64,000 nucleotides of DNA. Origin: Botryllus schlosseri (lineage: Eukaryota). Position numbers and translations under genes: made by a program. Below, in pieces: positions 4,501 to 63,353 of the stretch (its first letter is position 1; each line of letters starts with the position of its first letter). Location: contig CM119372.1 in assembly GCA_051294905.1 (NCBI GenBank), positions 6,574,001 to 6,638,000 of the forward strand, given 5' to 3'. The notes under the pieces are model-generated. The model saw nothing but the letters and a program-made list of their open reading frames with translations. It was not told the DNA's origin and did not search any database.

Positions 4501-7500
4501 CATAAGTCGCAGACATGCGTCGTAATCAGCATCATATACACCATAAATCGATATACGGCATGGATTCTGAATAGGTACGAATTGATATCCGTTTTATATG
4601 TTTATATATTGTCTGTGATTTGCGACATTCCCGCATCGGATACTCGAAACCGCAACTCGACATATTTTCTGCGGTTCAATTGCAGGGGTCAACTATATGC
4701 CTACAAAGTTTTTATATAACCTGAAAGCATCTTTTAAAGCTACGTGTCATTAACAACGGCATCATGAATCACGGCTATGCTTTGATATGGTGCATGTGTG
4801 AAGATTACAGATATAATCATTATGAATCATTCATACAGTATTCTATATGGACTTGCTGTAAGACAATAACTCTGAGCAGGAATATAAAAATCTTACATGT
4901 GTTGTCATGTACATCCCGTTTTATTCATAATAAGGACAACCACCTTAGTTCGGTGGTTACATCACGATGTGCTGGTTTTCAATTTGGGAGTTGTACTCCC
5001 TGGCTGACCGAAGGAACGATGGACACTGTACAGTTATATATCCCTCAAATTTATGTGTTTTAGTTTTAGCACATGCTGTATTATGGTGGGCTTGCGAATA
5101 ATCCAGTTCGACATAAACTAACTCAATTTACTAAGACGCATGGGCAATTAGGTAATTCACAACTGGAGTCAGATGACTCTTATTTCCGCCTATCTGCTTT
5201 GAGTAAGCCTCCCTGACGCGTAGAGTTGTAATTCTTCGCAATAAGCAAATAAAAGAGGGATTTCTTCAGGTTCATAATCACTACGAAAATCCCGAGGGCC
5301 CAGCTTCAAAGACTATGAATGGAAAGTTATGATGGGAAATGCGACATTTCATCTTGCTCTGTCTTACCGTAAAACATATATGGGCTGCGGACGCGGTGAC
5401 GCACTTTACAAATGAACGATGCCGTCCCGGGCATATTACACTGAAAAGTCATCCGCGCAGTATAAGGTTACGACTTCTTCCGCAGATATTTTTTGGCTCA
5501 TTTCGTTCCTAAATGATCGCATTCTTTGTGAGACGATTTCGTTGGTCGGTAAAGGATTAATATTTGGTTTCCCTGGCGTTAAAACAGGGAATCACTGCGT
5601 TTCGTATTTGCGCTGCTGTAAATTATCGAAATGTTTTGTATGGTGTCCCGTCTTGTGAAATCTCAATAGAAAACAGAACCCGTGTTGAAATAAAAGGTCG
5701 TCTGCGTCTTACAGATCGTAAATCTCAGTTCATCCAAGTAAGTGAATACATCAGATCGCACGGAATCGTGAATTAATATTCAATACTGGAAATAAATCTA
5801 AAGGCGCAATTAATCTTCCCAACCATAGGAAATGACATGTGACGACATTGTGCATCAAACGTTCACCGAGAAACAGGAAGTCTCAAGTCATATGTTGTTG
5901 GCAGAACTGTAATAAAACGTTTAATGACGATTTTGATTTCACGTACTGGCCACAGAAGCTTATCCGATTACAATTGATAAAAATAACTCTCTCTCTCTCT
6001 CTCTCTCGCTCTCTCTCTGATGTTTCAGATTGCATAATGCATATTCAATGTGTCAGCATCTCAGTATCTGCTACTTTCAGTTTCACAACACACGGCGAAA
6101 TGACCGTTTTAATTACCACTCACCAACATCTCAATAATTATTACATTACAGGCTACTCAACGTTCCTCCACACGATCCTACGGAGCATACGACCAGCACA
6201 AAGGGGACAAAACTCTACTGCAACTCACTGCGTTTCCTTTCGCAAAGGCAACGAGAACTGTGCATACAACACCCCGATATAATGAGAAAAATTAGCGAAG
6301 GGGTGCATTTAGGCGTACGGGAATGTGGATATCAATTCCGCAACAGCAGATGGAACTGTACAATGTACCCGGGACGACCAAAGCAACACGCATTTGAACC
6401 GGTAATGCGAAATAGTAAGTATATGGACCCTCAATCAATGTGGGATGAGGTGTCATACTATATATAAGTTGAGCAACTGGGCATATATGGGCACAAACCA
6501 GCATTTAATCAAGTATTATAGCACAAAATAACATCAATTACGAATATCGCTTTAACAAAACTTTAGGATTTAGGAATGAAATTCGCGTATGTGGCGTTTG
6601 GGAACTCAGTCATCAATCATTACTACGGCCACTCTCATATGGCATGTTAGCGTAGGAAATAGGTGAAATTAATAGGAAACGTATCAATGATCAAAACATT
6701 AGGGGGCGAATCACACTGACAATTTCTGCGAAATACGTTTCGTTACAAATACCGGAATTACAAAATCAACAATGTGTCGGCGGAATTCCATTAAATTGCC
6801 ATGAAAATGGCTTTGTGTTTGGTTACAAAATTTGTCATGAAAACGATCAGGTTGCGGAGCGGCATCGCGTCGTTCGGCATGCCTCAGACGGAATGCGGAC
6901 AAAATTTTATCCTGGCGATAATGATCGAACGGTTAACAGTAAATATTGATTGCAATTGAAGGTGTTGATGTGGTCTTTGTGAATGCGAATGCCGTGTCTT
7001 TGAAGTAACTCACTTCTTTATTCGCCGACAGTCAAGTTCGTTTACTAGCTAACACTCAAAGGTCACAAATACGAAATTTGTATTTCCGAAATTCGCGTGG
7101 TTTGAAAGATAGAGAAGTAACGGTGCAGCATGCCACTGCGTAAACCAATGCTGCACGTCCATGAATCTTTCATACGCTATCGTAAACTGGCGATGCACAA
7201 TGACTTATGAAACGGCCTGCTACATATATATGTACTTGATGGTACATTAGTACACAGATAATTTAAAGTGACAATATATAAACATGAAAACTATATGAAT
7301 TACTACATTGTGAATATAGCCAGGTGAATGTTCGCAATTTCATCAAAGTTAAAGTAACAGAATCATACAAAAGTATACTAACATAGTTCTCTGAAACAAT
7401 AAATCTCAATAACCCCGTATCATTTCATCCATTGTACGGCCATGTTTGCTTGATACAGCGATGATCGCGCGTTCGCTAGCCAACTGATGGTAAGATCATA

Positions 7501-10500
7501 ATTATCTCTGCATGAGAGGAAAGGTTTTGATTAGATTCCTAAACGCCGAGTTCAATGTTGACAGATGGGATTGATTACAAACGCAAACAGCGTCACCAAC
7601 TTCACATGTACGATGCTCATTTAATCTTGACCTTGACAGAAAATGATAGTCGGATGTTTACGCAAGGCCGCAATAGTTAAACATCCGCTCTGCCAGGGTA
7701 TCGAGATTACCTTTACCCGTAGCGTCTAATGATTTTTAGGGAATTCGCGGTTCGCTGAAATCTCGATGAAGCGACTTAGTTTAAGGGATACTCATTATGT
7801 CCCGAGAAAGATCTTTATTCAGCTGACGGAAAAAGGGCTTTCGACACCGTGCGGTCAAGTATCATGGTAAAATCCGACGCTTGGCTGCAAATCTTGACGA
7901 TTCCCAAGCTCTCGGTACACGTGCTTACTGGAACGACACATAGATTTTCGCTTGTTGCATTGACCCGTCCCTAACCGGTTGAAGAGTATAGGAATCTCGT
8001 GTCGTGCCATTTACCGATCCGCTAGTAGTAATCTTAGACAGAAGAGAGAACGATCAAACGAAATTTAACGGAGCTCAAAACGACAAAAACTCGTAGATTA
8101 TAACTCAATACTATGTATTCAAATAGTAGCAAGGATTTCATTGTGTTGCTCCAAGTAGAAATTGGCGGTTTTGACTTCTCAGTCGTCGATAATGCCGTTT
8201 AACTTTTCAAATTTCGTATATAGGCGCGGGAATGTGTGCCGTATATAGTACACGGTGTTCATCGCTTATTTGGGTCCGGCGTGAAAGCAATTTTCAAGAT
8301 CTAAGTTTGTTCTGCAATCGAATCACAGCGCGATTGACAAACATGGAGGGGTGAATGGGAACGTCAGACATCTGGAATTTATCAATGCGGCCCGTTTGAT
8401 GTATATTCTGCGGTGCGACACCGAAATCTGTTTAATGTTGAATGTAAGCTTGACCAACCCACTTAAATTTTGCTAACAATAGCTGGCCGATTAAACGATC
8501 TCATATCCTATTCTTATCCGTAGTATTTGCGTCAAGGCGTAAACTTGGCAGCTTCCACTATGCTGATCGAACGCGACTGCTAACGGGTGTTGGAAAATAA
8601 ACTGAACGTATAATACCTACAAAGTCGCGATTGTAACATATTTATTACATCATGCACCATGAGTAACGCTTATAAATAGACAATAGGGATTCACCTGGTA
8701 AGAGCAGATTGCTAGTTATCGTAGTTTCGATGTTGTCTTATGCTGTAGAATCATAGACACCGTATATTCTCTCAGGATACTAGGTTCCACCTCTACCTTC
8801 CAAGATATATTAACTTAACTTCGATGTCATGTTACGTTTTGGCATAAGCATTTCCACAAAAGCACTACCACAGTTATATCCCCCATACATTGATTGAAGA
8901 TATCAAATTTTACTATATGTTACATTACAGCACGTGGATTTTGTACCCCCAGCGGAAATTTTTACTCTTTTTACGATTCAGCGTGTGCTGACTTGGCGAC
9001 TGGCATACCTAAAGTGTATGAGCGCGTCCCTCCCATGGAAGTGTCATGGTCATTATTTTTCGCAGAGGGCAAAGAAAGAGCCTATATCAACGCTATATTA
9101 TCTGCGGCTGTTTCATTCACTGTCACGGAAGCATGTTCACGCGGCGAGTTGAAACTGGACTGCGGGTGCGCCCGAATGAAACGGAATTATGATCACGAAG
9201 CTCGAAGAGTGAGTACGGCGTTGTGAAGTTCGTGTTCGTGAAGAGGTGCTAAATCATGCCCCGCGTCGATTCGGGTCCGGAAGATATACATTATGCATTC
9301 CTTCAATTCTTTTCCTGTTCAGCCAAGAGCCCGTGACAGGCCAGAACTATGACATAGGGTTGTAATCAAGTCACAAGATCCTGAGTCACAAGTCAATTAT
9401 ATACTTTTATAGTTTTGACTCTCGAGACAATTCGAGTCATTTTCAATTCACCACCGCGTCAAATTCGAGTCCAAGTCAGGATTCAAGTTCGAGTCCGAGT
9501 CACAGTCTTGACACTCAAGTCCTATTCCAAGTCATTATGTTCACTGTTCCAGTCCTGTTCAGCTCACTTTTTACAACTCACTTTACACAGTTTCTGCCCC
9601 TATTTTACAAATACCAGTACTGATAGACGTGGTAACTTACTCTTCTTCGAAGTTGCAATGAAATGCCCGTCTTGGCCGACCGAGATCGAGTCACGCGTAA
9701 TGACTCGAGTACAAGTCAAGTCGAGTTAATACACAAATTGCCTCAACTCAAGTCTGGAGTAGAGTCATTTTTCATATATGAGGAAATGTCCCGAGTCAGG
9801 TCGTGTCAGACTCGGATCTAGCCATGAGTCGAGTCATTGCACATTTGCTATGGCAAGCATCGGTTACCTTATGGCAGGGCTGCCCAACCTTTTCAGCCAA
9901 AGGGCCACATTCAATCGACGAAATATTTCGTGGGCCACAAGCCGCGCGAAGCGCGAAAATTTTGTCGAAGTTCATAGCTGAATAATATTGTCACTTGACT
10001 ATATTGCGGGTCTGCAGTATATCGCTGGGCTCAGTTTGCCAGCACTGGACTATTCAGCGCCTGGACATATCAATTTCGAAAGCTTCGACCAACATGCGTC
10101 AATCGTTTTGTGCCTCGGTTTCATAGTCGACGGTCTTTCTGCGAACGCAAACGCTAGGTCGCATATGTTGAACGACACTGTCTCGTAATCGAGAATATAG
10201 TTTGACTCAATCTGATACATTAGGTATTCTTTCATTTTCACAAAGGGGTAACAATATTAGAAGCAAGAAATCGAGTGACAACATGTTGCGCGAAGCGTGT
10301 AGCAAATATTTACTTTTGATAAATTTATCGCAAATTATTCTGCTTTATTGTAGTGTACGAAGATCTACCGAAGTGTGACTGGCTCATGGAAATGCCAATG
10401 CGTCGTAACTGATATTTTAGTCATAAGATCTCAAGTGTTGCTTCCAGACTAATCAAATTTTTGGTTGGCCTTGCAAGTTCACAATCTGTGCAATTCATTT

Positions 10501-13500: not shown

Positions 13501-14762
13501 TCATCACGACCACTTCCTATCTCTTTATTTTATCGTAATTTTATGGTGTTTTGAACTGATGAAATTATTAGTAAACTAAACTGAAATGAACTGAAGCGAA
13601 CGCTTCCTTATCGCTGCGTTGTTACTGATTCGACTGATATATGACGTTTCTAATAAATTAAGATTCCCACGCGCTTTCACTTCCATTTTCCTCGGCGGCA
13701 TCCTCAAAATCGTGCGCGTTCGATCAAAACTGAGATTAGGCTTATTTTAGTCGGGCGTTTATGGTATTTTACACCGGTATGACAACAAAATCCGTCGGCG
13801 CTGATCGCGTGAACAATTGCCAAGAAAGAATATCGCGAAACGTATTGACATTTTTAGCATTTCGTCCCTACAAAACGTCATGAGTCAAACATAAATCGAC
13901 TCACACGACAGCGAAGACGGGTTCATGTCACTTTTAATTCCGAAAGTAAATTATGACTGGGAAATTTCTCGCGAGGTGGCATAATACCCAAAATAAGATC
14001 CAGCAGCGCAGTCACCATTAGTACGTCTTACTTCATCTTTGATATGACGTCTCATCTCTCGCTTGGGCGTTGACTGGAAAATTGTTTCCAAAGTACAAAG
14101 CTACCGATCATTACTGAGTACGCTCGATCCCGGTTTCTCGCGTCGATGAAACAGTGAGAATAGCTCTATCGCGATTTTTAATCCCAATTATACGGTTACG
14201 TCACGCTGATATTGATTTATATTCGCTGCGTAGGCGGGAAACTAACGCATCCACAAATCCACAATGTCGATTCGCTTTCATGTCTAATTTGGGTTGCTTT
14301 TGGTTTTAGGAGATCGTTCGGAATACCGTAACAGCTTGTCGCTGCCACGGAATAACTGGCTCGTGTCAGCAAAACGTCTGCTGGCGGGCGAAGCCGCGAA
14401 TACGCAACGTCAGCACTGAACTGTTCCAGCGGTTCAACTCAGCGCTCAAGGTGCGTGTGCGAAAGTCACGCGTGCAGCCGGTCAAGTCGAGACGATCTCT
14501 CGAACTGAGCGACTTGATCTATCTGAGAAATTCTCCAAAGTTTTGTAAAGCAAATTTATCGAGAGGCTCCTACGGAACGGCCGGGCGCCGGTGTAACGGC
14601 ACTACCACCGGGCCTGGTAGTTGCAGCTATATGTGCTGTAACCGCGGATACAACACGGTGGAAGAAACGAAGGAGTCTAGTTGCAACTGCAAGTTCGAGT
14701 GGTGCTGCAACGTCAACTGCGATACGTGCCGTGAAATGCAAGTGGAAAACTACTGCAAGTGA
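1431..14762 (+). CDS. Wnt: Wnt family ligand, 5 coding exons (1431-1519, 6152-6414, 9066-9208, 11665-11805, 14310-14762), 362 aa; subfamily unresolved
   Basis: All introns are GT-AG with matching phases (2,1,0,0); the spliced length is 1089 nt = 363 codons. The product has a signal peptide ending ATWW, ECGYQFRNSRWNC, EACSRGEL-DCGC, FEWGGCSDD, LHNKAAGR, CRCHGITGSC, and a C-terminal CCNRGY..CNCKFEWCCNVNCDTC..C; 24 Cys in total. Confidence 0.96.
5986..6018. repeat. (CT)n microsatellite in Wnt intron 1
   Basis: ctctctctctctctctctctctcgctctctctct. Confidence 0.9.
6152..6414 (+). CDS. Wnt: Wnt exon 2
   Basis: ttacag| acceptor; LYCNSLRFLSQRQRELCIQHPDIMRKISEGVHLGVRECGYQFRNSRWNC; |gtaagt donor. Confidence 0.95.
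9066..9208 (+). CDS. Wnt: Wnt exon 3
   Basis: ttttcgcag| acceptor; GKERAYINAILSAAVSFTVTEACSRGELKLDCGC; |gtgagt donor. Confidence 0.95.
9355..9847. mobile_element. hAT-type MITE, family A (GACTC/GAGTC-rich), in Wnt intron 3
   Basis: Starts TAGGGTTGTAA; flanked by CTATGACA/CTATGGCA (7/8 TSD); homologous to the copies at 15334 and 17509. Confidence 0.85.
9875..10597. mobile_element. hAT (Charlie/Buster-like) MITE in Wnt intron 3
   Basis: TIRs CAGGGCTGCCCAACC / GGTTGGCCGGCCCTG; perfect 8-bp TSD CCTTATGG; GCGGGCC subterminal repeats. Confidence 0.92.
11665..11805 (+). CDS. Wnt: Wnt exon 4
   Basis: ttttacag| acceptor; RSFEWGGCSDDVTFGDGISRDFFEENIRNSRKGLEVLDLHNKAAGRR; |gtaagt donor. Not in the ORF track. 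Confidence 0.95.
11881..12857. mobile_element. hAT (Charlie/Buster-like) MITE in Wnt intron 4
   Basis: TIRs CAGTGGTTCTCAACC / GGTTGAGAACCATTG; perfect TSD GTATATGG. Confidence 0.93.
13069..13280. repeat. Imperfect ~210-bp palindrome (fold-back MITE remnant)
   Basis: atcaaagtagcttatgtc...gacataagctacattgat, with internally matching inverted arms. Confidence 0.7.
14310..14762 (+). CDS. Wnt: Wnt exon 5 (terminal)
   Basis: ggttttag| acceptor; EIVRNTVTACRCHGITGSCQQNVCW...DLIYLRNSPKFC...GTAGRRC...CCNRGY...CKFEWCCNVNCDTC...YCK-stop. Confidence 0.97.
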   Translation, partial: EIVRNTVTACRCHGITGSCQQNVCWRAKPRIRNVSTELFQRFNSALKVRVRKSRVQPVKSRRSLELSDLIYLRNSPKFCKANLSRGSYGTAGRRCNGTTTGPGSCSYMCCNRGYNTVEETKESSCNCKFEWCCNVNCDTCREMQVENYCK

Positions 14763-17997: not shown

Positions 17998-18689
17998 ATG
18001 AACATAAATCATAGCGTATTTCTTCGAAACTTTTTCCAACGTTCTTCAATTTCTTTTCGCGCTTTGCACGATTTAGTGTCACTAAATGTCTTGCTTATTA
18101 GGTTCCTTTATCCGAGAAATACGCATGATTTATAGAAATAGGCATTTGGGCGTCGGCCATTACCGCGTCATGACGTACCAACACATAATGATGAAGATTA
18201 GGCTAACATGGGACTACGAAAGGCGTGCCAAAAATTCGGCAGCGAGAAAACCGATTGAGTCATGAATTATGGAAAATTTTTACTATTGGCGCGATTAAGC
18301 TACTCAAACTCTTTGCATGCACTGAGTACAATGAATGTGCTCACAAGTAAAGGTGAAGACATAAGCCCAACGGTAGGGTCTGGGGGCGAAGCCCCAGAAG
18401 TTTGGCTTATCGCCATATGGAGCCCAAGTCCAACGCTTTTGGGGCTGGGCTGACGAAGTGCTTTTTCGGCAGGTATGACTTGTATAGTTGCTGTAAGGTG
18501 TTTTATTGCGTCACGCATTGCATTCGTAGTTGCCAGAGTAGACTATGCGTCCGGTGACAGATGGGCAAGGAGCAAAGCAGCACAACAAGGTGCTTGGCTC
18601 AACTCCGAAACGCGTCTTGTCTCGATATTCTCAAAGCGAAGACTATATTCGAGTTGGGCGACCCGGGTTCGATTTCCGCAATTGGATTA

Positions 18690-19182
18690 TTCTGAGCTCC
18701 TCGTCCCCAGAGTCGTTGTTCTTACGCCGACAAAGAAAAAGGCACAGAAAAGAAAAGTCCCACCAACGAAAGAAAAAAGACTATAGCAAAAAGAACCGTC
18801 GAAGAAAGAATAAAACCGAAGAAGACTGTGATACCGGGCACTATATGGCGAGGTGGGTGCCACTTCAAGAGACTCCAACTGATTGTGGTCGTTCGGCATC
18901 CCTCTATCTGTTCATTACATCGCATTGCGTCTTTTGTATATCGCATTTTACATTATGTGTGTGTGTTGGGCAGATGAAAATATGATCTGTCCATTGATTG
19001 ATTGATTGTTTGATCTGGCACTAAACCGAGGTGGATGTAATATCGAGAGTCCGCACCTGATCATTTCAACCTCCTATCTTTTCATTGCATCGTATTATGT
19101 CTTGTGTGTCGCAGTGTACATTGTATGTGTCTTGAGTGGATCAAAACATAAAAGCCTACTAATACGAGACGTTTTTAATTAC
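18690..19182. repeat. Interspersed repeat family R (other copies at 19630-19994, ~54090-54400, ~58730-58960)
   Basis: Shared core gggcact..ggcgaggtgg..tatctgttcattacatcgcattg..cagatgaa; the copy here contains two diverged ~180-bp subunits. Confidence 0.75.
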
Positions 19183-19629
19183 TTATTATTATTAATATTA
19201 ATATGGTTAAAAGTTGTAGTGGCGCTTATCTCCCTTAAGGGTCTGGTGCACCACGGTCTGAAGTTACCTACTGGTATAAGTACCCTTGCAATGTATTTCA
19301 ACCTCGTCTATATACGAATCAAATCTTAAAGGATTCTACGACATGATAGCACGAATTCAGCCACAGGGGTTAATAGCTCGGGCTGGACTAATAGGTTATA
19401 AGTCGTGAATGGGATGTCATGATTACGGCATGACTCAATGAGAAAGGACCGTTGAAAATCGTATCTTGCACAATTCAGTAGAAAATGGTCGACAGTTTCA
19501 GTGATATTACAATGGAGACATAGCGGAGTATCTGAACAATGTGAACATCCTATTTTGAACGAATGGGCGTTAAGCCTACAATGGCCGGAGCGCAGACGGA
19601 ACATGATCACCTCAAATTGCCACAGAGGA
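19183..19629 (-). mobile_element. 5'-truncated non-LTR retrotransposon (LINE) 3' end: ORF2 C-terminal Cys/His domain, 3'UTR and (TAA)n tail
   Basis: Minus strand reads FEVIMFRLRSGHCRLNAH..CLHCNITETVDHFLLNCARYDFQR..stop at 19326. The RLRxGH..CxxC..ETVxHxLxxC pattern is typical of I/R1-group ORF2 C-termini. A (TAA)n tail lies at 19183-19200. Confidence 0.88.
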
Positions 19630-20125
19630 ATACCGGGCACTATATGGCGAGGTGGGTGCCACTTCAAGAGACTCCAACTGATTGTGGTCGTTCGGCATCC
19701 CTCTATCTGTTCATTACATCGCATTGCGTCTTTTGTATATCGCATTTTACATTATGTGTGTGTCTTGGGCAGATGAAAATATGATCTGTCCCATTGATTG
19801 ATTGATTGTTTGATCTGGCACTAAACCGAGGTGGATGTAATATCGAGAGTCCGCACCTGATCATTTCAACCTCCTATCTTTTCATTACATCGTATTATGT
19901 CTTGTGTGTCGCAGTGTACATTGTATGTGTCTTGAGTGGATCAAAACATAAAAGCCTACGAATACGATTGAATCAACGAGACGTTTTTAATTACAATTTC
20001 CATATTCTCCACAATAACCCTCCTCACGGGTACATCAATTAGGCTTAGCACATGACCGAAGGTTACTGGGAAGATAGACATTTTAAAAAATATTTTGACC
20101 TTTCATTATATACATTACCTTACAA

Positions 20126-26057: not shown

Positions 26058-29000
26058 ATGGAGCGCACAGCCGAAGGTTCCGCCGGTGAGTAATCGCGCA
26101 TGTCATCCTGCAAAAAGCAGTCGTCTGAAATATTGCGTATACTCTGTATTAGAATGGTTATTGAAGCATATTCGTTAAAGCTATTAGCAGATGAAGTAAT
26201 CTCAACGCTGATAAAACTGTTGGTCTGATAAAGTGATGTTGATAGAGTATAATCTGTGTTGACCAAATGCTATAAGCCCATCCGCAATGAAGGCAATGTC
26301 TATCCTAAATATTTCCCAGGTTTTGTCGTATTGATTGTAAACATAGAGTCACCGTTTCTACAACTTTTATGAGTCTGCTTACGCGATTTACACTTATGAC
26401 GTAGAGATATCCGTGACCAGAAAGGGATACCAATCACACTCATATACGGTCGGCTCGTCAAGCTATCAAGCCGCATTTGGATACAAGGCAAAGCGCCACA
26501 CTGATCATGGATTGCTGCGGTACAACCGCGGGTATGTCTTACTAAATCGAGGGATGACCATCGTTGAGTCGATCATAAATAACGGGAATTTATGAATCAA
26601 CAGCTTGTATCTCTAATTCTTGGTCAGTGCATTGCATTGTAGATAGGGGTCGCAGATACATTATGTAAAGAAATTCACCGTTGCTTCAATCTAAGGTACT
26701 CCAAGGAGGGTACCATACATTCGGTTTCCGCAGCCGAAAATTTCGCCCAACTGCCCGGTATACTGAACAGCCGCACCGATGAGAAGGAAGAGCTTAGTTC
26801 ACTCAACGATAGGTTTGCAACCTACATCGATAAGGTGAAGAGGCTGGAAGCTCAAAACAAATCTCTAACCACGAAGATCATTGAGGTAAACAAGGGCGAG
26901 GGTTCCGTTCTTCAATTGTCTGACTATATTCAGTACGGCACCACGTGGATTCCCATATAGTTCCCAAACTTTATTGTGTTATCCATCGGAACATGATAAT
27001 ATTAATAGAAAGAGTGAGAGGTGCTTATCCCATTCACGGCCTTGTACACTACAGTTCTGGGTTAATTTACAAGATATACAGTATATACGGATTCAAAGTA
27101 ACGATAAGATCTTTCGATGGTATGAGCCAATCGACTTACTAAAGTAAGGAGCGGATATACAGACACAAAAGCAAACATCGCCATTATGTACCGGTCTGGT
27201 CATTCATTATGTTGAGAAGGAAAAGCCAACAGATATTCGTAAGTCATCAAAATTGCCCCAATGAAAGAAATTGCAGATTATGATCAGTCAATGGCGTTAG
27301 TCTGCCGGATTATGACGGCCATTCATGGAATATATTGGTTAAGTTAAAATATTAGGAAAGTAAGCTATATAGTATGCTCGCCGATCTGCCATTCTATATT
27401 CTCTGAAGGAAGTTTTTATTAATAACATGAACAGAGCTATATTTGACAACTAATATAATTTTTATGGCTCGCGTGGGAAATTCGCAGCGTAAGTAACTTT
27501 TCTACGACTCTTGATATACCAATTTCGCAAATGTAATCCACAAATCAACGCTAAATTAAAAACAGCACCATTTATCAACAGCTTGAATCGAGCAGGAGCA
27601 TGGTAAGTCGCTCTGGTGACATGTACGACGACGAACTTGCAAGGCTCCGTCGCGAAATTGAGAAACTGACGCACGACAGAGCGGCGTGCGAGATCCAGTT
27701 GCACAACTGTGTTCAAGATTTGCAGGAATCGGAAAAAAGGTATACGAACATCAGTTTTATCACGCCTTTCCATACCTGCATGTATGCTGGACCCATGGCA
27801 GCCTATCATTGTCTATTGTTCCTTACAGAGAACAGCAGGAGGCGAATGCACGGCGTGAAGCAGAGCGCACCATAAAATCTCTGAGGAAGGATGTAGACGA
27901 CGCCACTCTATCAAGAATGGATTTGGAGAGAAGGGTTGAAACATTGCAGGAGGAGTTGGAGTTGCTTAGGGCAACTTCGAATGAGGTATCCTTTTAAATT
28001 ATTATTGCTGTATCGGACGGATACCAATACGGACTGATTCGGTGTCACATTATTTCACGGTCAACCGTGTCGCTGTCGACCAACAAGTGTCCTAAATTGA
28101 ACCATTGTGACCAACTAGGAACGTCTATATATCGTTATACTGCTCTAGTTGGACAGGACAGCCGTAACACAACAACCTTATAATTCTAGATATCACGATG
28201 TAATAATTGTCTGAATCGAACTAATGAATTTAGTTAAGAATCTATCCACGCGGCAATCTGCAACAACTCACGAACGATTCTTACAGATATGGATGCTCGT
28301 ATTCAGACATACTTCATAGCTAAATAAATAATCCGCAGACTTGGTGTTTGCTTTTCTCATGTTTTCAACTGATGTACTAATTAGTTTCGCTCTGTCTTAT
28401 GTACAGGACATTGAGACTTTGAAATCACATGTAACGGTTACACGCGAAGATGTACTCGATTCTGCTCCCGAGCCGATTTGGGACCTCACCGACTCCCTAA
28501 AAGATATCCGCGCGGCGTACGAACAATTGTCTGCGAATAACACAACCGAAATTGAGAAAATCTACAAGAAAAATGTAAGTTGTCCAACAATGAACTACCG
28601 CAAAATCGAACGGGTCGTATTCAGATTGCAGATTTGCAAGCACAAGTTAAGAAAGCTAACCAAGCTCTGGCCACGTCCAAAACCGACTCGGTGGAAACGC
28701 GCAGACAGTTGCAGTCGCTGACCGCCGACATCGAAGGTCTGCGAAGCACGGTAAAACCTCCTCAGCGACCTCCAACGGCCGCACAATATTACAAGTTTAT
28801 ACCTACTATTGCAGAACGCGTCACTCGAAGCACAAATCTCCGATTTGGAGGGCCGTCTGGAAAAGGAAGGCATGGAAGCGAGAGACAAAATACAGGTGAA
28901 ACGTTAATTATTTTATAGACGCAATCCATTTGAAAATATACCCGTTTCTGTTTAGGAACTGGAAGAGGAACTGCAAAAGTCACGCGATATGTTGGCTAAC

Positions 29001-53716: not shown

Positions 53717-55474
53717 GGGTGGAGCCCAATTTCTCTACTGAGTAGCGATTCTCTACTCAGCAACGATTTCGTAACTCAACTCACGCCAAAAAGGATACTC
53801 ATACTCAAATGCGTCCAGATCGGCACTCAAATCTAAGTCAGCGCACCACCAGACTTAAGTGTCAATTTTCACGGTCGGGCAGCCAACTGCCGGCAACACC
53901 CGCCAAATACCGTAGTACCGGCACTGTCGTATATAGCTGGAATAGGTACACTAGTGAGGTTCTGCTGAGCGAATGAACGCAGTGGCGCTTGGACGGATAT
54001 TGTGTTTATAATTGTATCTTCTGTACCCTTTCGACTTCTTGTCGTACGGCATCTCGGTATACCGGAACGGTAACTTCTGCAGTCTCAATGCGCTAGCATC
54101 CCCCCCCCCCCGCCGTGGCGGTTCTTACGGCGACAAAAAAGCCCAGAAAAAGACCTGACAAAGAGAAAGCACTCACAAGGAATGGAAATAACTAGAAAGG
54201 GACGTGGCTTCAAAAAGATCAACATCGAAAAGAACTGTGACATCGGGCACTCTAGGCCGAGGTGGATGTCAGTAGAAAAAAAGATCGCAACTGCGTGTCG
54301 TTCGATATCCTCCCATCTGTTCATTACATCGCATTGTGTCTTATCGCATTTTACATTGTGTGTGACTTGTTCAGATGAATAATATAACTTAACGATACTT
54401 ATTATTACGCATGCTCTTCCCACAATTAAATGGATGAAACATCTTGAACAGACCCCAGTATGAACCTCAGCAGATAGAGTTCCAGCAGTGGTGGCCTTAC
54501 GAACGGGGGGACCCTGGGCGAGACTTACCGGGGGGGCTATAAGTATCTAACCGTAACTTCTGGGGGGGGGGGCTCCGCCCACCAGACCCCCCTTTCCCGC
54601 GGTAACGTTTGACCAGGTGCTGGATTCGGCTATGTCTATTATTGCATGTGTCTAAGGATAGACTACATCAAGACTAAGTAATTCTACTGCATGCAGAGAC
54701 GTGATCATCATCGGGATACGGGACTTTTCTAACAAATGCATAGATTTGATGATGATTGACACATCCGCACGGAATCATATTCTTGCTTGGTACACGGATT
54801 TCCATGTTTATTCGTTATTATCCTTATAATCTGAATAGGGGGGCCCCTTCGACCAGGGGGGCCCCGGGCGACCGCCCACCTCGCCTACCCCAAAAGCCAC
54901 CACTGAGTTCCAGGTAATATCAGGGTTAGGATGGAGTCGCTATACCTTCAAGCCAGTTTAGACGATAGCAGCAATATGCTATTGGAAATAAGAAATAGAT
55001 GCATTATTTGTTATTTCTGGTCTGCACTTACGTGTTCGCATCATGTGAAACTTATCTGTATATATTTCGAATGGGTTTGTAGCGTCTAGCAAATATACTT
55101 CTGTGGGGCATAGGAACGTTCCGGGTATCTTCAAGGATTTATATATTCATATTAGATGATCTTTAAAGAGTGTGGATCAGCTGAGGGTATTCATTGCATT
55201 TAGATAAATCAGTGAGAACTGCGTCTAGTTTGTAGGCCAGTGACGAAATAATGACGACAGCGTCGTGTTGTCATGACAAAATCGTTCACGCGTGTCCGGT
55301 CGAAGGCGAAAAAAATCTGGCAACGCTATCTCGGAAAACGACGTCTGGAAATCGATACTCAACTGAGTAGAGAGAATTGGCGCGCACTCAACGCTGAGTA
55401 ACGATCGATACTTAGTTGAGTATCGATACGCATTTGAGTAGAACTTGGCTGAGGATAGGAATTGGGCTCCACCC
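53717..55474. mobile_element. PIF/Harbinger-like non-autonomous element
   Basis: TIR GGGTGGAGCCCAATT/AATTGGGCTCCACCC; 3-bp flanks TGA/TTA; ACTCA/TGAGT subterminal repeats. Confidence 0.78.
54486..54905. mobile_element. hAT (Tip100-like) MITE nested in the Harbinger-like element
   Basis: CAGTGGTGGC...GCCACCACTG; perfect TSD AGTTCCAG; G/C-run subtermini. Confidence 0.9.
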
Positions 55475-58533: not shown

Positions 58534-59387
58534 ATGACGACTCAAATATGGCTTGGCATATGAAAAACATCCGGAATTCAACATTCATTCACGGCTTTTT
58601 TGTATTTAGTTACCTCACTCTAGCCATGAAGGAGTCGCGTGACAAGTGGCTGGTGAGATATCCAATCCAATCCTAGGTGACGTGAAACATCACAGGTAGA
58701 ATCAAGTATTTATATTATAGAAGCGTAAAGACCCGACGAAAGAAAGCACTCACAAGCAATGGAAAGAACAAGAAAGGGCCGCGGCTTCACAAAAAAATCA
58801 ACATCGAAAAGAACCGTTACATCGGGCACTCTAGGCCGAGGTGGAGGTCAGTCGAAAAGGATCGCAACTGCGTGTCGTTCGATATCCTTCTATCTGTTCA
58901 TTACATCGCATTGCACATTGCGTGTGACTTGTTCAGATGAAAAATATAACCCAGAGATAATTATATTATTATTATATATACTAAATTGCAAATCACTGAT
59001 GCAACGAAATGACTTAAATTGAAGTCGACGAGTCAATCTCCAATCTCTATGTCTGCTTATACTGCAATGTTTTTCACATGTTACAGCACACCTGTTTAAA
59101 AAGTCAAATTTATTTACAAACTTCATTGTCATGGTGGTTATACAGTCAGTTAACTTTTAATTTATATCTTACACCTTGTAGCCTACTTAATACTGTTGTA
59201 AATGACCCATTGTCTACTTATTGTGAATCCATCAGCCATTAGGTCAATAAATTAGGTTGATACAAAGTAAGCCTACTGCTCAACACGACTTTCCGACGAT
59301 CGGGCATGCGATTTATACCTCAAAGCAAGACTAACGTTACCCACAAGATTTGTCCTTAAGCTAATCCTAACTCTTAACTTTAATCGA

Positions 59388-59682: not shown

Positions 59683-61695
59683 ACGTCAAAACGAAGTCCC
59701 TAATTCATTTTGCCCCAACTGTAGGTTATGTACACTCCCTACTTCAATCTATCTTTAATTTAGACAAATATATTGAAAAGACTGCGGGGTATTTGCGCGT
59801 ATATCAACAAGAGTATATAAAAAAAATTGCGAATTTACGAACAACATTTTCAGTATGAAGCAATAGATATTGTCACCAGCAAGATATGCTGATCTTCAGT
59901 GCTGCCAGCCTACAGCTGCTGTTGAACGACGTTTCCTCATTTTTTTAAAGCTACTTCGTCAGGACAGAATGTCAGGACAGAATGTCAGAATGTCAGGACA
60001 GAAAAAAAGTAGAAAAGTACTTATCGTTGTACTGCAATAAATTTCAACGTTTTGCAACAATGCGTAATTTAATTACCTGAGTACCTTCACATACATCTAA
60101 TATTGTCAAAATAATACTGGTCTCTCCGATAAACTAACCATGGTTCCAGAACGATAATAAGCAATGCGGGTGCGGAAGACGTTGTTACTTCCGTAATTTA
60201 GGCGAAATGATCTCGTTACATTTCGAAACCTTATGCCTACCCGTGACGCTTAATGTGGAATAGAAATGATAAGTTGACAGTCCCGAACAGGCTGTCGAAA
60301 TAACTAGTGGAAAGGCATGTTTTCGTTGAAATAAATTGTAGGGCAGAAACTGCTTGATTGGTGTTCGATATTGATGTTTTCTAGATGCGATGCATTAGTA
60401 CTTGATATGTCACTATGGCAGTATACCCATTGGATTTTAGTCAACTCTGCCGCTAGTTTGAAGTTTTACTAAAGTTCCAAGCGTTTTGAGACTGAATGCT
60501 TGATTCTTATGAGTTGACGCAAATCACGCGGCTCAAGTTCATGTGGCGCATGATTCGAAGGTGAGAAGGTCCCAAGAAGAAGCCACCGCAAGAGCACGCG
60601 CTATAGGAACATGTCCATGCCAATTCTTCCTGGTCGGGTGCGTGATACGTAACTTAAACTGATATGACGTATCTTTCGCAGGTGCATGACTATGCAAAAT
60701 ATCACGTGAATAGTAACCGTACCCCTACATTCTAAGGTACATTCTAGTTTCATTCCAAATTATTCGAACATTATTCCGTCACGCGATGAGGAGATGTGCG
60801 TATATGGTCTTTAAGAAGCTGCCGAATCATGTTTGCGAAAAGATATTGTGAAAACAAAGGGAATCGAATTCTTCAGCCGACCACCCACAATAGTATATGG
60901 TTAACGGGCGTCGAGTATAGGCCTACCGTAATCGATTTGCTGAAGAGAAACGCAATCTACAATAGCATGTAGGTCAATGACATCGCGGTATACGCAAGAA
61001 TGACGACAGCGTCCCACCAGTAGCGTGCCATAAAATGTCCTCTAAAAACGGAACGCCCAAGCGTCCTTGGTCACGTATACAGCCGCGCAGCGAACGATCC
61101 GAGAGCAATGAATCACTCTACAAACAGTAAAATCTTGCCATAGTTCATCCCGTCATTGATCGGGACTTCGTTGATCGGTGATAACGGCCGTTTGGTAAAT
61201 GAAATGTAGGAATCTAAACAATAAATAGAATATTGATGTCAAGACGCAACCTCGTATAGCCTTCGTCGATAAATAATGCATATAGAAGTGCACCAACTAA
61301 AGTCATAAACTACTATTAGCGTTCAGGAGGAAAGGAGTGATTTATACAAATACGAGGTGACCTGTGGAACTTATACGAAATATAAGACACGATGGTGCTA
61401 GCACAATAGTTTGAGTAAAATAAGGAAATGCAATACCGAGAAGGCACAAGTTTCGATTAGGTATTGGTGTCGCATTGACTAGGACACGATATTCAAAAGG
61501 TATTTCAAAACATATTTGGATCTTGGTCCTGCGCAAATATATTTTAGTTAGCGCAATGCACATTCAGGACACACAGCAGACGAAGAGGCAAATCACATAG
61601 AAATATGACATTTACATTCCGGAATTCGGGTGCATATAGTCGGATTTCGGTACATTTTTTCTTGGCCCTCACGCGTTTCTCCCCTTTGCCGCTAA

Positions 61696-61732
61696 TATAA
61701 AAGTGGGCATCAAACGCAGTTGTGCCTCATTT
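61696..61732 (+). promoter_or_regulatory. TATA box and initiator of the peptide precursor gene
   Basis: TATAAAAG at 61696; Inr-like TCATTT ~31 nt downstream (61727); ATG at 61785. Confidence 0.65.
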
Positions 61733-61784
61733 CTCAAGACACAATCGGTACCGCCGGAAAACAGCACTCTTCAAAACATCAAGC

Positions 61785-63353
61785 ATGGCGAAGCTTTCAC
61801 TTGGATCAACTGTCAACATTGCAACAATAGGAATTCTCGTCTTCTACTTGAGCACAGCAGAATCCAGGATTTTACCGTACCGGTAACGTCCGAGATTCAT
61901 TCAATTCTGTGCCCAGTGCCTTAACGCTCACGGTTCCATATACAGAAGCATCTCGCGAAACACCGAAGATTCACTTCAAAAATCTTTCGAACCAGCATAT
62001 AAAAGCGATGAGGCATATCGGAATCGCAACGCAGCAAGAGGGAATCAAAATGGTAGGAATGCATCTTGCCGTTATGTATAAACCGGAAATGCTTTCAAAT
62101 AACTTGGTTCCTTTGCAGCATTTCTATCAAACACAAATCAGGATCGGCTATATCGATTGAGGAGGTATTCCGAGGGTACCGCAACGAGTCTGGACTCAAT
62201 CAACAGAGACAGCGTTGCAGCCGATCGTTTAAGACAATCACTTACTGGGTAAGTTTTCGCCAAAGGGAGCATTTTTCAGCTTCTTCCGAATCACCACAGC
62301 GAATCAGCTTTCCCCGCAATCATTTGGCAGAAGATGGTCTTCCACACGCAACCCTTCCTATTTACCCGGGCTTGAAACCGGCACTGGTTTTAGTGACCAA
62401 CGAATGGATTCTTGAGGGAAGGCCATCGGGATGTAAGACCTCTGATTTGCTGAACCACAGATGTAACCATTAAAGGGGTAGGGCACTCTAAAAATGATGT
62501 GGTCTCAAATTGAAGAGCAAAACGAAAAAGAATTTGGCCGCAGCCGTTTTCTTCAGAACGCCACCATAATGGAACTGCAATTTATTAAAATTTCCACAGC
62601 AACTTCACGCTATAGCAGTCACGCAGAGATCAAACTTTATATATTTGTCAGCCGATGTTATGAAGCAAATATGTCGTACACGCGCTATTTCCCAAAGAAA
62701 TAGAATGCACTAGGCCCGATTTTGACATAAATCTCCTGACTCAACATCTTCCGTTGAACGCGGTATCTAAACCACCTTGGCGTGTACGACATATTTCCTT
62801 CATAACATCGGCTGACAACTATATAAAGTTCGATCTCTGCGTGACTGCTGGAGCGTGAAGTTGCTGTGGAAATTTCAATAAATTCCAGCTCCATTACGGT
62901 GGCGTTCTGAAGAAAATGGCTGCATCCAAAAACGAAAATTTCGTTTCGCCCTTCAATTTGAGACCACATCATTTTTAGAGTGCAGTGCCCCTTAGCTTTA
63001 GTTTTAGGTAGTATTTAATAAATGACTACTACCTATATCAAAATGTTCAATGCATTCTAAATGGGGTTGGGGTGCTAGGTGATATGTTCGAGGTGTGAAA
63101 TCCAACTAACATGAGATTTTCCTGAACCGAAACAAATGGCCATGATAAACCTACTATTCTACTCCCGCTAAATGTGATTCAAATGTACCGATGGGCGATG
63201 GTATCGCTACTAATACAGCATTTCAAATTGAATTACCTTTTTTACAGACCAGCCACAGGCGGCTTGATCGATAAGCAATGTCTCATGGAATATCTTCCTA
63301 CAATTGTCTCCGACTACACGTTTAATTATGCAATTTCGATATGTACACTTTGA
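61785..63353 (+). CDS. Secreted prepropeptide, glucagon/GIP/secretin-superfamily-like, ~146 aa; exons 61785-61882, 61946-62052, 62119-62248, 63248-63353 (last exon less certain)
   Basis: Signal peptide MAKLSLGSTVNIATIGILVFYLSTAES. GT-AG introns of 63, 66 and 999 nt with matching phases 2,1,2; 441 nt in total. An RLRR site is followed by YSEGTATSLDSINRDSVAADRLRQSLTG. Confidence 0.75.
62474..62992. mobile_element. Palindromic Kolobok-like MITE in intron 3 of the peptide gene
   Basis: TTAA|AGGGGTAGGGCACTCTAAAAATGATGTGGTCTC...GAGACCACATCATTTTTAGAGTGCAGTGCCCCT; ~200-bp inverted arms, which explain the near-identical ORFs 62494+ and 62685-. Confidence 0.85.

Follow-up and report, generated by a model that had tools for sequence, protein, structure and literature searches.

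Does the genome of the tunicate Botryllus schlosseri encode a hormone of the glucagon type? The question is raised by a locus near the end of a 64,000-nucleotide stretch of that genome (assembly GCA_051294905.1, contig CM119372.1, positions 6,574,001 to 6,638,000 of the forward strand; hereafter the window, whose own numbering we use throughout), in which an earlier note, made from the letters alone, had proposed four small exons encoding the precursor of a glucagon/GIP-like peptide. We find that the locus is a real, expressed four-exon gene for a small secreted precursor, and that it is an unannotated gene of the window. We consider it likely that the product is a secreted, furin-processed peptide precursor, which is the core common to the readings discussed below. 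Kinship with glucagon is a separate matter, and there we lean, with reserve, towards a signalling peptide unrelated to the secretin family.

The gene model drawn in the earlier note, with GT-AG phases that close across all junctions, proved to be exact. GT..AG borders are present on all of the exons, which join into a frame of 441 nt, or 146 codons plus stop (Table 1). To the interval 61550-62470 we aligned the contigs of three runs from three studies (X1, X2 and X8) and the raw reads of a fourth run, X23. X23 is on record as RNA-seq; the RNA status of X1, X2 and X8 is a guess ('RNA?'), the run index lists no RNA holder, and the evidence for RNA is the alignment itself. Spliced RNA was present in all four aligned runs, which come from four studies. 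The 61882/61946 joint, which removes a 63-nt intron, is carried by one contig each in X1 and X2 and by 15 X23 reads (9+6, with 11 starts), and the 62052/62119 joint, which removes a 66-nt intron, by one contig each in X1, X2 and X8 and by 8 X23 reads. RNA depth is zero across both of these short introns and past 62262. At 62248 all four runs have a loose end with a common 30-letter consensus, the single occurrence of which in the window is 63248-63277, the first 30 bases of exon 4, and the predicted 62248/63248 junction is recovered in this way. Exon 4 is seen in the reads as those first 30 letters only, and the stop codon and 3' end are read from the sequence and from how far the contig loose ends extend; X1 has 219 letters beyond 62248, and the 3' untranslated region continues past the stop codon. 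No joint that skips exon 2, which the earlier note had named as grounds for giving up the model, is listed at the joint threshold in any of the four runs over the aligned interval. Expression, as the note had anticipated, is real, and it is moderate and broad: 20 runs from 10 studies contain part of the stretch, and 131 X23 reads aligned among 12.9 million records read.

The 5' end of the transcript could be placed from the same reads. Five X23 reads stop near 61730 with adaptor-like loose letters, presumably those of a template-switch oligo, and depth climbs over 61705-61735; these template-switch-like read ends put the start of transcription some 35 nt past the TATA box that the earlier note had marked upstream of exon 1. 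Four X23 reads instead carry loose letters before 61738, and their 30-mer is unique in the window, at 61164-61193. This alternative upstream exon points to a distal promoter in addition to the TATA promoter. Its acceptor lies 46 nt before the ATG. Because the leader junction at 61738/61739 reads TG+A, an in-frame stop, the alternative leader is non-coding and the ATG at 61785 stands. No other ATG precedes it in the transcript, and its context is good, with A at -3 and G at +4.

The aligned runs also carry differences from the window that bear on coding status. There are 8 single-nucleotide polymorphisms (SNPs) in the coding sequence, and 7 of the 8 are synonymous third-position changes, the remaining one replacing N61 by I. 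All three SNPs of exon 1 are synonymous; exon 2 has three synonymous SNPs, the N-to-I change and one in-frame deletion. If one quarter of random changes were synonymous, 7 of 8 would be reached with a chance of about 4e-4 (binomial arithmetic by hand). The sole indel is that deletion, 6 nt long and carried by X8, which falls in the pro-region within a short Y-R-N-R-N stretch. The 83-nt glucagon-like module has no listed SNPs in the four runs, which is not significant with so few SNPs overall. Codon 61 has a two-base variant that gives N or I; this variant and the deletion account for the pro-region polymorphism at 62017 and 62029/62030. Together the data show that the gene is transcribed and spliced and that its frame is open and under purifying selection.

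Table 1. Features of the locus and of its surroundings in the window
Feature	Coordinates	Strand	Remarks
Alternative upstream 5' exon, 3' end	61164-61194	+	Non-coding; donor GT at 61195; joins the acceptor at 61738/61739
TATA box TATAAAAG of the proximal promoter	61696-61703	+	Transcription start near 61731
Exon 1, coding part	61785-61882	+	Start codon and signal-peptide-like segment, with a likely cut after Ala25
Exon 2	61946-62052	+	Hydrophilic pro-region (spacer); splice joints seen on both sides
Exon 3, first part	62119-62165	+	End of the pro-region, closing with the furin/prohormone convertase (PC) site RLRR (codons 62154-62165)
Exon 3, second part	62166-62248	+	Glucagon-like module, residues 1-28 of the predicted mature product
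Exon 4, coding part	63248-63353	+	Gly/Pro-rich linker, 28-residue tail with two Cys, stop codon 63351-63353
Foldback miniature inverted-repeat transposable element (MITE), 521 bp, in intron 3	62473-62993		Arms of 151 nt (92% complementary) and 55 nt; outside the gene product
Wnt gene, three exons	6138-6467, 8894-9226, 14310-14762	+	Pfam wnt, E 5e-14, 1e-7 and 7e-48
Intermediate-filament gene exons	26643-28721	+	Pfam Filament, profile positions 1-40, 90-140 and 140-199; about 12 kb downstream of the Wnt gene

What kind of protein does this frame encode? Its 146 residues have the layout that the earlier note had read from the letters, of signal peptide, spacer, RLRR and peptide, and the sequence supports that order. 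In the putative signal peptide a basic n-region is followed by an apolar core of 11 residues, and S-T-A precedes the probable cleavage point. The hydrophilic pro-region that follows, about 59 residues long, ends at RLRR (residues 81-84), directly after which comes Y1 (Tyr85, codon 62166-62168), just where the note had put its RxRR site. The protein has no R-x-[KR]-R or dibasic site besides RLRR and the overlapping RLYR. Downstream of RLRR there is no [KR][KR], R-x-x-R or Gly-basic amidation site, and the product runs for 62 residues to the stop codon, includes two cysteines, and consists of a 28-residue module followed by a tail of about 34 residues. The 26-mer that the earlier note had treated as the peptide therefore does not stand as a processed unit, since its end is an exon border and no processing site. 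Signal-peptide cleavage, furin cleavage, a disulfide and a signalling role are what we infer from this layout. The gene has the generic attributes of a prohormone: a predicted signal peptide, a convertase site, small size, expression and coding constraint.

Structure was predicted from single sequences. The module begins with an eight-residue N-terminal segment, Y-S-E-G-T-A-T-S, followed by a helix predicted at residues 9-26 and then G-P. For exon 3, AlphaFold2 (AF2) places the helix at residues 9-26 with a break at residues 6-8 and a mean predicted local distance difference test score (pLDDT) of 83.5; for the exon 4 tail it gives a helix-turn-helix whose two helices carry a Cys apiece, at a mean pLDDT of 75.8. 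The module helix is hydrophilic, with a mean hydrophobicity of -0.31, and its hydrophobic moment of 0.349 was reached by 28,546 of 100,000 shuffles (28.5%). At the usual receptor-contact positions only A19, L22 and L26 are apolar.

Searches of family and structure databases gave the peptide no family. Five exon pieces (with exon 3 taken both as 42 and as 27 aa) matched no Pfam family at E<=10, and the profiles for Hormone_2, CRF/urocortin/DH44 and PTH did not match at that threshold either; the search against Hormone_2 (PF00123) that the earlier note had put forward as a check thus went against its proposal. When PF00123 was run over the whole 495.5-Mb genome, 26 candidates were scored and the locus was not picked. 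The three genome matches at E<=10 all lay elsewhere, at a chance-level 16.2-16.5 bits, the curated cut-off for Hormone_2 being 21.2 bits. A phmmer search with the 27-residue peptide over all PDB chains returned 0 matches at E<=10. Readings of the N-terminus as CRF-like or PTH-like were dropped, there being no profile match and a poor fit by eye; by eye, only an S-E...S-L-D pattern resembles CRF-type starts.

Searches for relatives ended in the same way. A HMMER search of 1.84 billion representatives with exon 3 gave two matches at E of about 5e-5, which we rejected as artefacts, both being translations of tandem-repeat open reading frames that sum weak matches. A word-indexed search of 5.8 billion clustered proteins, with exon 3 or with exon 4 plus eight intron-encoded residues, found no relative, which is weak evidence. 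The protein itself was not returned, from which it follows that the gene is not in the protein collections searched. Metagenome contigs gave 598 pattern matches, of which 0 were confirmed, and no orthologue was retrieved from the protein, PDB or metagenome collections searched. Within the 495.5-Mb genome, exons 2, 3 and 4 are each single-copy.

Because there is no Pfam or PDB match, because no relatives were found and because the helix is not notably amphipathic, the reading we tentatively prefer, though we would put it at a little short of an even chance, is that of a lineage-specific secreted signalling peptide without secretin-family kinship. The 146-residue protein would enter the endoplasmic reticulum by means of its N-terminal signal peptide, and a convertase of the furin/PC type would then cut at the one RLRR site and remove the pro-region, about 59 hydrophilic residues long. 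In the released 62-residue peptide, a flexible N-terminal stretch of eight residues would lead into a helix about 18 residues long, and beyond a Gly/Pro linker would come a helix-turn-helix tail, probably stapled by one disulfide. The peptide would act extracellularly as a signal, its glucagon-like start would be the outcome of convergence or chance, and the gene would seemingly be restricted to the lineage of this animal.

A set of comparisons weighs against this preferred reading. The first is with the 18-position prototype of the chordate secretin family of Cardoso et al. 2010 (PMC2880984). In a register that was set by the cleavage site and not chosen, and with no threshold of membership defined, the peptide agrees with the prototype at 7 of 18 positions (G4, T5, T7, S8, S11, A19 and L26). 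Shuffling the peptide 2,000,000 times gave a score of at least 7 in only 229 cases (P of about 1.1e-4), and among 57,084 stop-free six-frame 26-mers from the window and loci this peptide alone does so; the four rows that score 7 are the same locus, seen in the window and in three overlapping loci, and 15 rows reach 6. The amphioxus PACAP/GCG peptides a, b and c, whose sequences are given in Table S4 of PMC9049855, themselves score 7, 8 and 7 of 18 in a hand count made by eye with a one-residue offset that aligns their T-S with T7-S8. In that same register, ungapped identity to amphioxus peptide a is 9 of 30 (T7, S8, S11, A19, R21, L22, Q24, S25 and L26, again by eye). The length and position of the predicted helix fit those of a class-B1 ligand helix, and among named clusters of language-model neighbours Hormone_2 ranks third; its score of 0.77 is a weak lead, and the best named neighbours score 0.77, under lead level.

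The same alignment shows where the peptide departs from the family. According to PMC2880984, H1 and F6 are key receptor-binding residues common to both subfamilies; here the first is Y and the second A, and D, R, L and S stand at the positions of Y10, L14, F22 and W25. The strong divergence that the earlier note had described, with F6, Y10, F22 and W25 replaced by A, D, L and S, is therefore found again in full. Positions 10, 13, 14, 23, 25 and 27 are occupied by D, N, R, R, S and T, none of them hydrophobic. The prototype and all three amphioxus peptides share six positions (D3, T7, S8, L14, A19 and L26), and four of these are kept here, with E in place of D3. Given the number of convertase sites in secreted proteins, a match as good as this one could arise by chance roughly once per few genomes. 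On the letters of the peptide, then, the resemblance to the prototype appears to be more than noise, while family membership is not shown; the earlier note's description of a glucagon/GIP-like hormone has the prototype match in a fixed register in its favour, and against it the Pfam profile, H1 and F6 and the largely missing hydrophobic face.

We note a weaker prototype match at 61596-61673 (+), just upstream of the TATA box, which agrees at 6 of 18 positions including H1, T5, F6, T7, S11 and F22. A basic cluster precedes the match, and the frame ends inside the TATA box. RNA depth over 61581-61673 is zero in X23 and only 3.86 in X1. This match is probably a coincidence, the rough chance of a 6-scorer so close being about 0.1.

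The genome was also examined for receptors. It contains at least 10 HRM exons and 84 7tm_2 matches. Three PTHR-like genes stand in tandem on C3 at 9.57-9.72 Mb (HRM exons at 9.58-9.71 Mb, E 1.3e-13), and three class-B1 genes of secretin/PACAP/PTH/GLP-like type stand in tandem on C6 at 5.33-5.66 Mb, where the assignment of the HRM exon is ambiguous. The best match of the C6 transmembrane exon is the secretin receptor (1.2e-12), followed by PAC1, PTH1R, VIPR and GLP1R, and its top 60 matches include no CRF or calcitonin receptor. The extracellular domains of the candidate receptors are split over several exons, and a receptor exon used as a query in the word-indexed protein search found no relative. 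A further cluster of strong 7tm_2 matches lies on C12 at 3.28-3.35 Mb. Judged from these matches, class-B1 receptors of the right broad kind are present in the genome, in agreement with Ciona, for which 3 GLPR-like, 2 PTHR-like, 2 CRHR-like genes and 1 CALCR-like gene have been reported (PMC2396169). The earlier note had proposed a ligand for a glucagon-type class-B1 receptor; that pairing is not established, whereas the secretin/PACAP/PTH-type receptor genes that it calls for do exist.

The literature gives these receptors no partner. In the accessible text of PMC7251081, PMC2880984 and PMC11661445, no secretin-family ligand gene has been found in a tunicate, and the last of these, a 2024 paper, states that there is no invertebrate glucagon orthologue besides the amphioxus PACAP/GCG gene. 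More broadly, the accessible text of PMC7251081, PMC2880984, PMC2396169, PMC9049855, PMC7481443, PMC11661445 and PMC6475428 describes no genomic tunicate secretin-family ligand; subscription papers and supplements may hold more. The glucagon/GLP-like and PTH-like class-B1 receptors of ascidians have thus so far been left without a ligand gene (PMC2396169, PMC7251081), and the gene described here is a concrete, expressed candidate with a defined cleavage site and an amphioxus-level prototype score, which makes the question directly testable.

The principal competitor of the reading we prefer is that the peptide is a true, very diverged secretin-superfamily ligand of PACAP/glucagon type, which we regard as possible while inclining to doubt it. 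Once freed by cleavage at RLRR, the N-terminal Y-S-E-G-T-A-T-S would insert into the transmembrane core of a class-B1 receptor, the helix at 9-26 would bind the extracellular domain, and the 34-residue tail would be an extension dispensable for activation; long ligands such as PTH(1-84) have an extension of this kind that is not needed for activation. A prototype match that is rare both in shuffles and among the 57,084 26-mers speaks for this explanation, as do the four of six positions (with E for D3) retained from the set common to the prototype and amphioxus, a start directly after the furin site, and an AF2 helix that ends before G-P. So does a score equal to that of receptor-validated amphioxus peptides, a benchmark which indicates that a functional invertebrate ligand need not score higher. 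The third rank of the Hormone_2 cluster lends a weak point, and receptor genes are at hand in the secretin-receptor-like triplet on C6 and the PTHR-like triplet on C3; Ciona likewise has its three GLPR-like receptors (PMC2396169) with no tunicate ligand gene found in the accessible literature, and some ligand for ascidian receptors must exist. These points have to be set against the missing Hormone_2 and PDB matches, and against the replacement of F6 by Ala at a position where amphioxus retains I, F or V. The presence of D, N, R, R, S and T at six positions that should be hydrophobic amounts to the loss of nearly all hydrophobic anchors, which is the change least expected of a class-B1 ligand, and the hydrophobic moment is not above that of shuffles. 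No dibasic or amidation site follows the module, most of the identities fall on S, T, A and G, and orthologues that could show constraint were not found in the collections searched. We know of no Cys-containing tail in the secretin family. Should this explanation nevertheless be true, the gene would be the first genuine genome-encoded tunicate ligand of PACAP/glucagon type, one that has lost Phe6 and most of its hydrophobic anchors and gained a disulfide-stapled helical tail, and its targets would be the secretin/GLP-type class-B1 receptors of ascidians, which have so far had no ligand.

Two further explanations concern the function and the very existence of the peptide. The product might be a secreted protein of no hormonal function, for example in defence or matrix, with a C-terminal helical mini-domain activated by furin cleavage. 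The moderate and broad expression (20 runs in 10 studies, 131 X23 reads) would suit such a protein, the three predicted helices could pack as a small folded domain, and an absence of relatives is common for fast-evolving defence genes; we nonetheless think it unlikely, in that the gene is single-copy and outside any gene family, the synonymous bias of its polymorphism argues against rapid diversifying change, and the product lacks both the cationic and the hydrophobic character of known ascidian antimicrobial peptides. Far less probable still is a spliced transcript that is not translated and whose open frame is fortuitous. The absence of the protein from every protein collection searched would accord with it, but the frame stays open through three phase-matched junctions, seven of the eight SNPs are synonymous, the only indel is of 6 nt, and the start codon lies in a good context. 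We therefore retain, as the tentative preference, the lineage-specific signalling peptide without secretin-family kinship. Even if it is no class-B1 ligand, the gene would add a new lineage-specific secreted peptide, and it would be a useful reminder that a short motif at the N-terminus can look like that of a hormone family.

Some features around the gene and elsewhere in the genome deserve mention. The MITE-like element in intron 3 belongs to a very abundant family: a first look gave 1,614 candidates, of which 40 were scored, and full-length copies 86-91% identical occur on many contigs. The subtype of the Wnt gene was not discriminated by PDB scores, as Wnt5a, Wnt7a and Wnt3 all matched at E of about 1e-31. 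In vertebrates, a HOX-linked paralogon also carries GIP/GCG, and we considered the Wnt and intermediate-filament genes as markers of that paralogon; this synteny idea was dropped, since the PDB scores did not separate the Wnt subtypes. Frames at 18542-18985, 19456-19776, 54074-54382 and 58729-59022 (+) contain long near-identical peptide stretches and are copies of one dispersed repeat, and a 141-aa frame on the opposite strand, at 19326-19751, has no Pfam match. Outside the window, Glyco_hydro_6 matches at C9:15025585-15025875 and C9:15068570-15068854 (-) fall within open frames 545 and 531 aa long, which we take to fit tunicate-type cellulose synthase genes; among animals this domain marks tunicate cellulose synthase, and the matches support the tunicate origin of the genome.

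Among known systems, the closest point of comparison is the amphioxus PACAP/GCG precursor (Mirabeau and Joly 2013; On et al. 2015; cited in PMC7251081 and PMC9049855). It too comes from an invertebrate chordate and from a four-exon gene, and its peptides likewise have few positions in common with the vertebrate hormones, with prototype scores of 7, 8 and 7 as compared with 7 of 18 here. T7, S8 and A19 are common to all three amphioxus peptides, and S11, R21, L22, Q24, S25 and L26 are shared with peptide a. In contrast to our peptide, in which they are mostly lost, the amphioxus peptides keep hydrophobic residues at F6, Y10, L14, 22/23 and 26/27. They are also 31-32 residues long, were synthesised in amidated form and activate the cloned amphioxus receptor (PMC7251081, PMC9049855), whereas the peptide described here has a 34-residue Cys tail and no C-terminal site, and its comparison is at the level of sequence.

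With the vertebrate peptides glucagon, GIP, GLP, PACAP, VIP and secretin the module shares a start after a convertase site, the pattern x-S-E-G-T-x-T-S, S11, A19 and L26, and a position on an internal exon. Unlike the vertebrate Hormone_2 peptides, it fails the profile, has Y and A in place of H1 and F6, forms a helix that is not notably amphipathic, and is predicted to be part of a 62-residue product with a disulfide-capable tail, where a processed peptide of about 27-44 residues would be expected of a member. Parathyroid hormone offers a different parallel: its mature chain runs from the pro-site to the stop codon, and only its N-terminal third is receptor-activating. Our gene resembles it in its predicted layout of signal peptide, short pro-piece with a basic end and long mature chain, and PTHR-like genes are present in this genome; it differs in having no visible sequence resemblance and no match to Pfam Parathyroid, and PTH is without a cysteine tail.

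Finally, a secretin-family peptide has been claimed for tunicates before. The only tunicate PACAP cDNAs so far reported show 85-96% identity to human PACAP, have never been found in any tunicate genome or transcriptome according to the accessible text of PMC7251081 and PMC2880984, and are widely doubted. Ours is likewise a tunicate locus for which membership in the secretin family has been proposed; unlike those cDNAs, it is a genomic gene, spliced and expressed, and its similarity to the vertebrate hormones is only remote.

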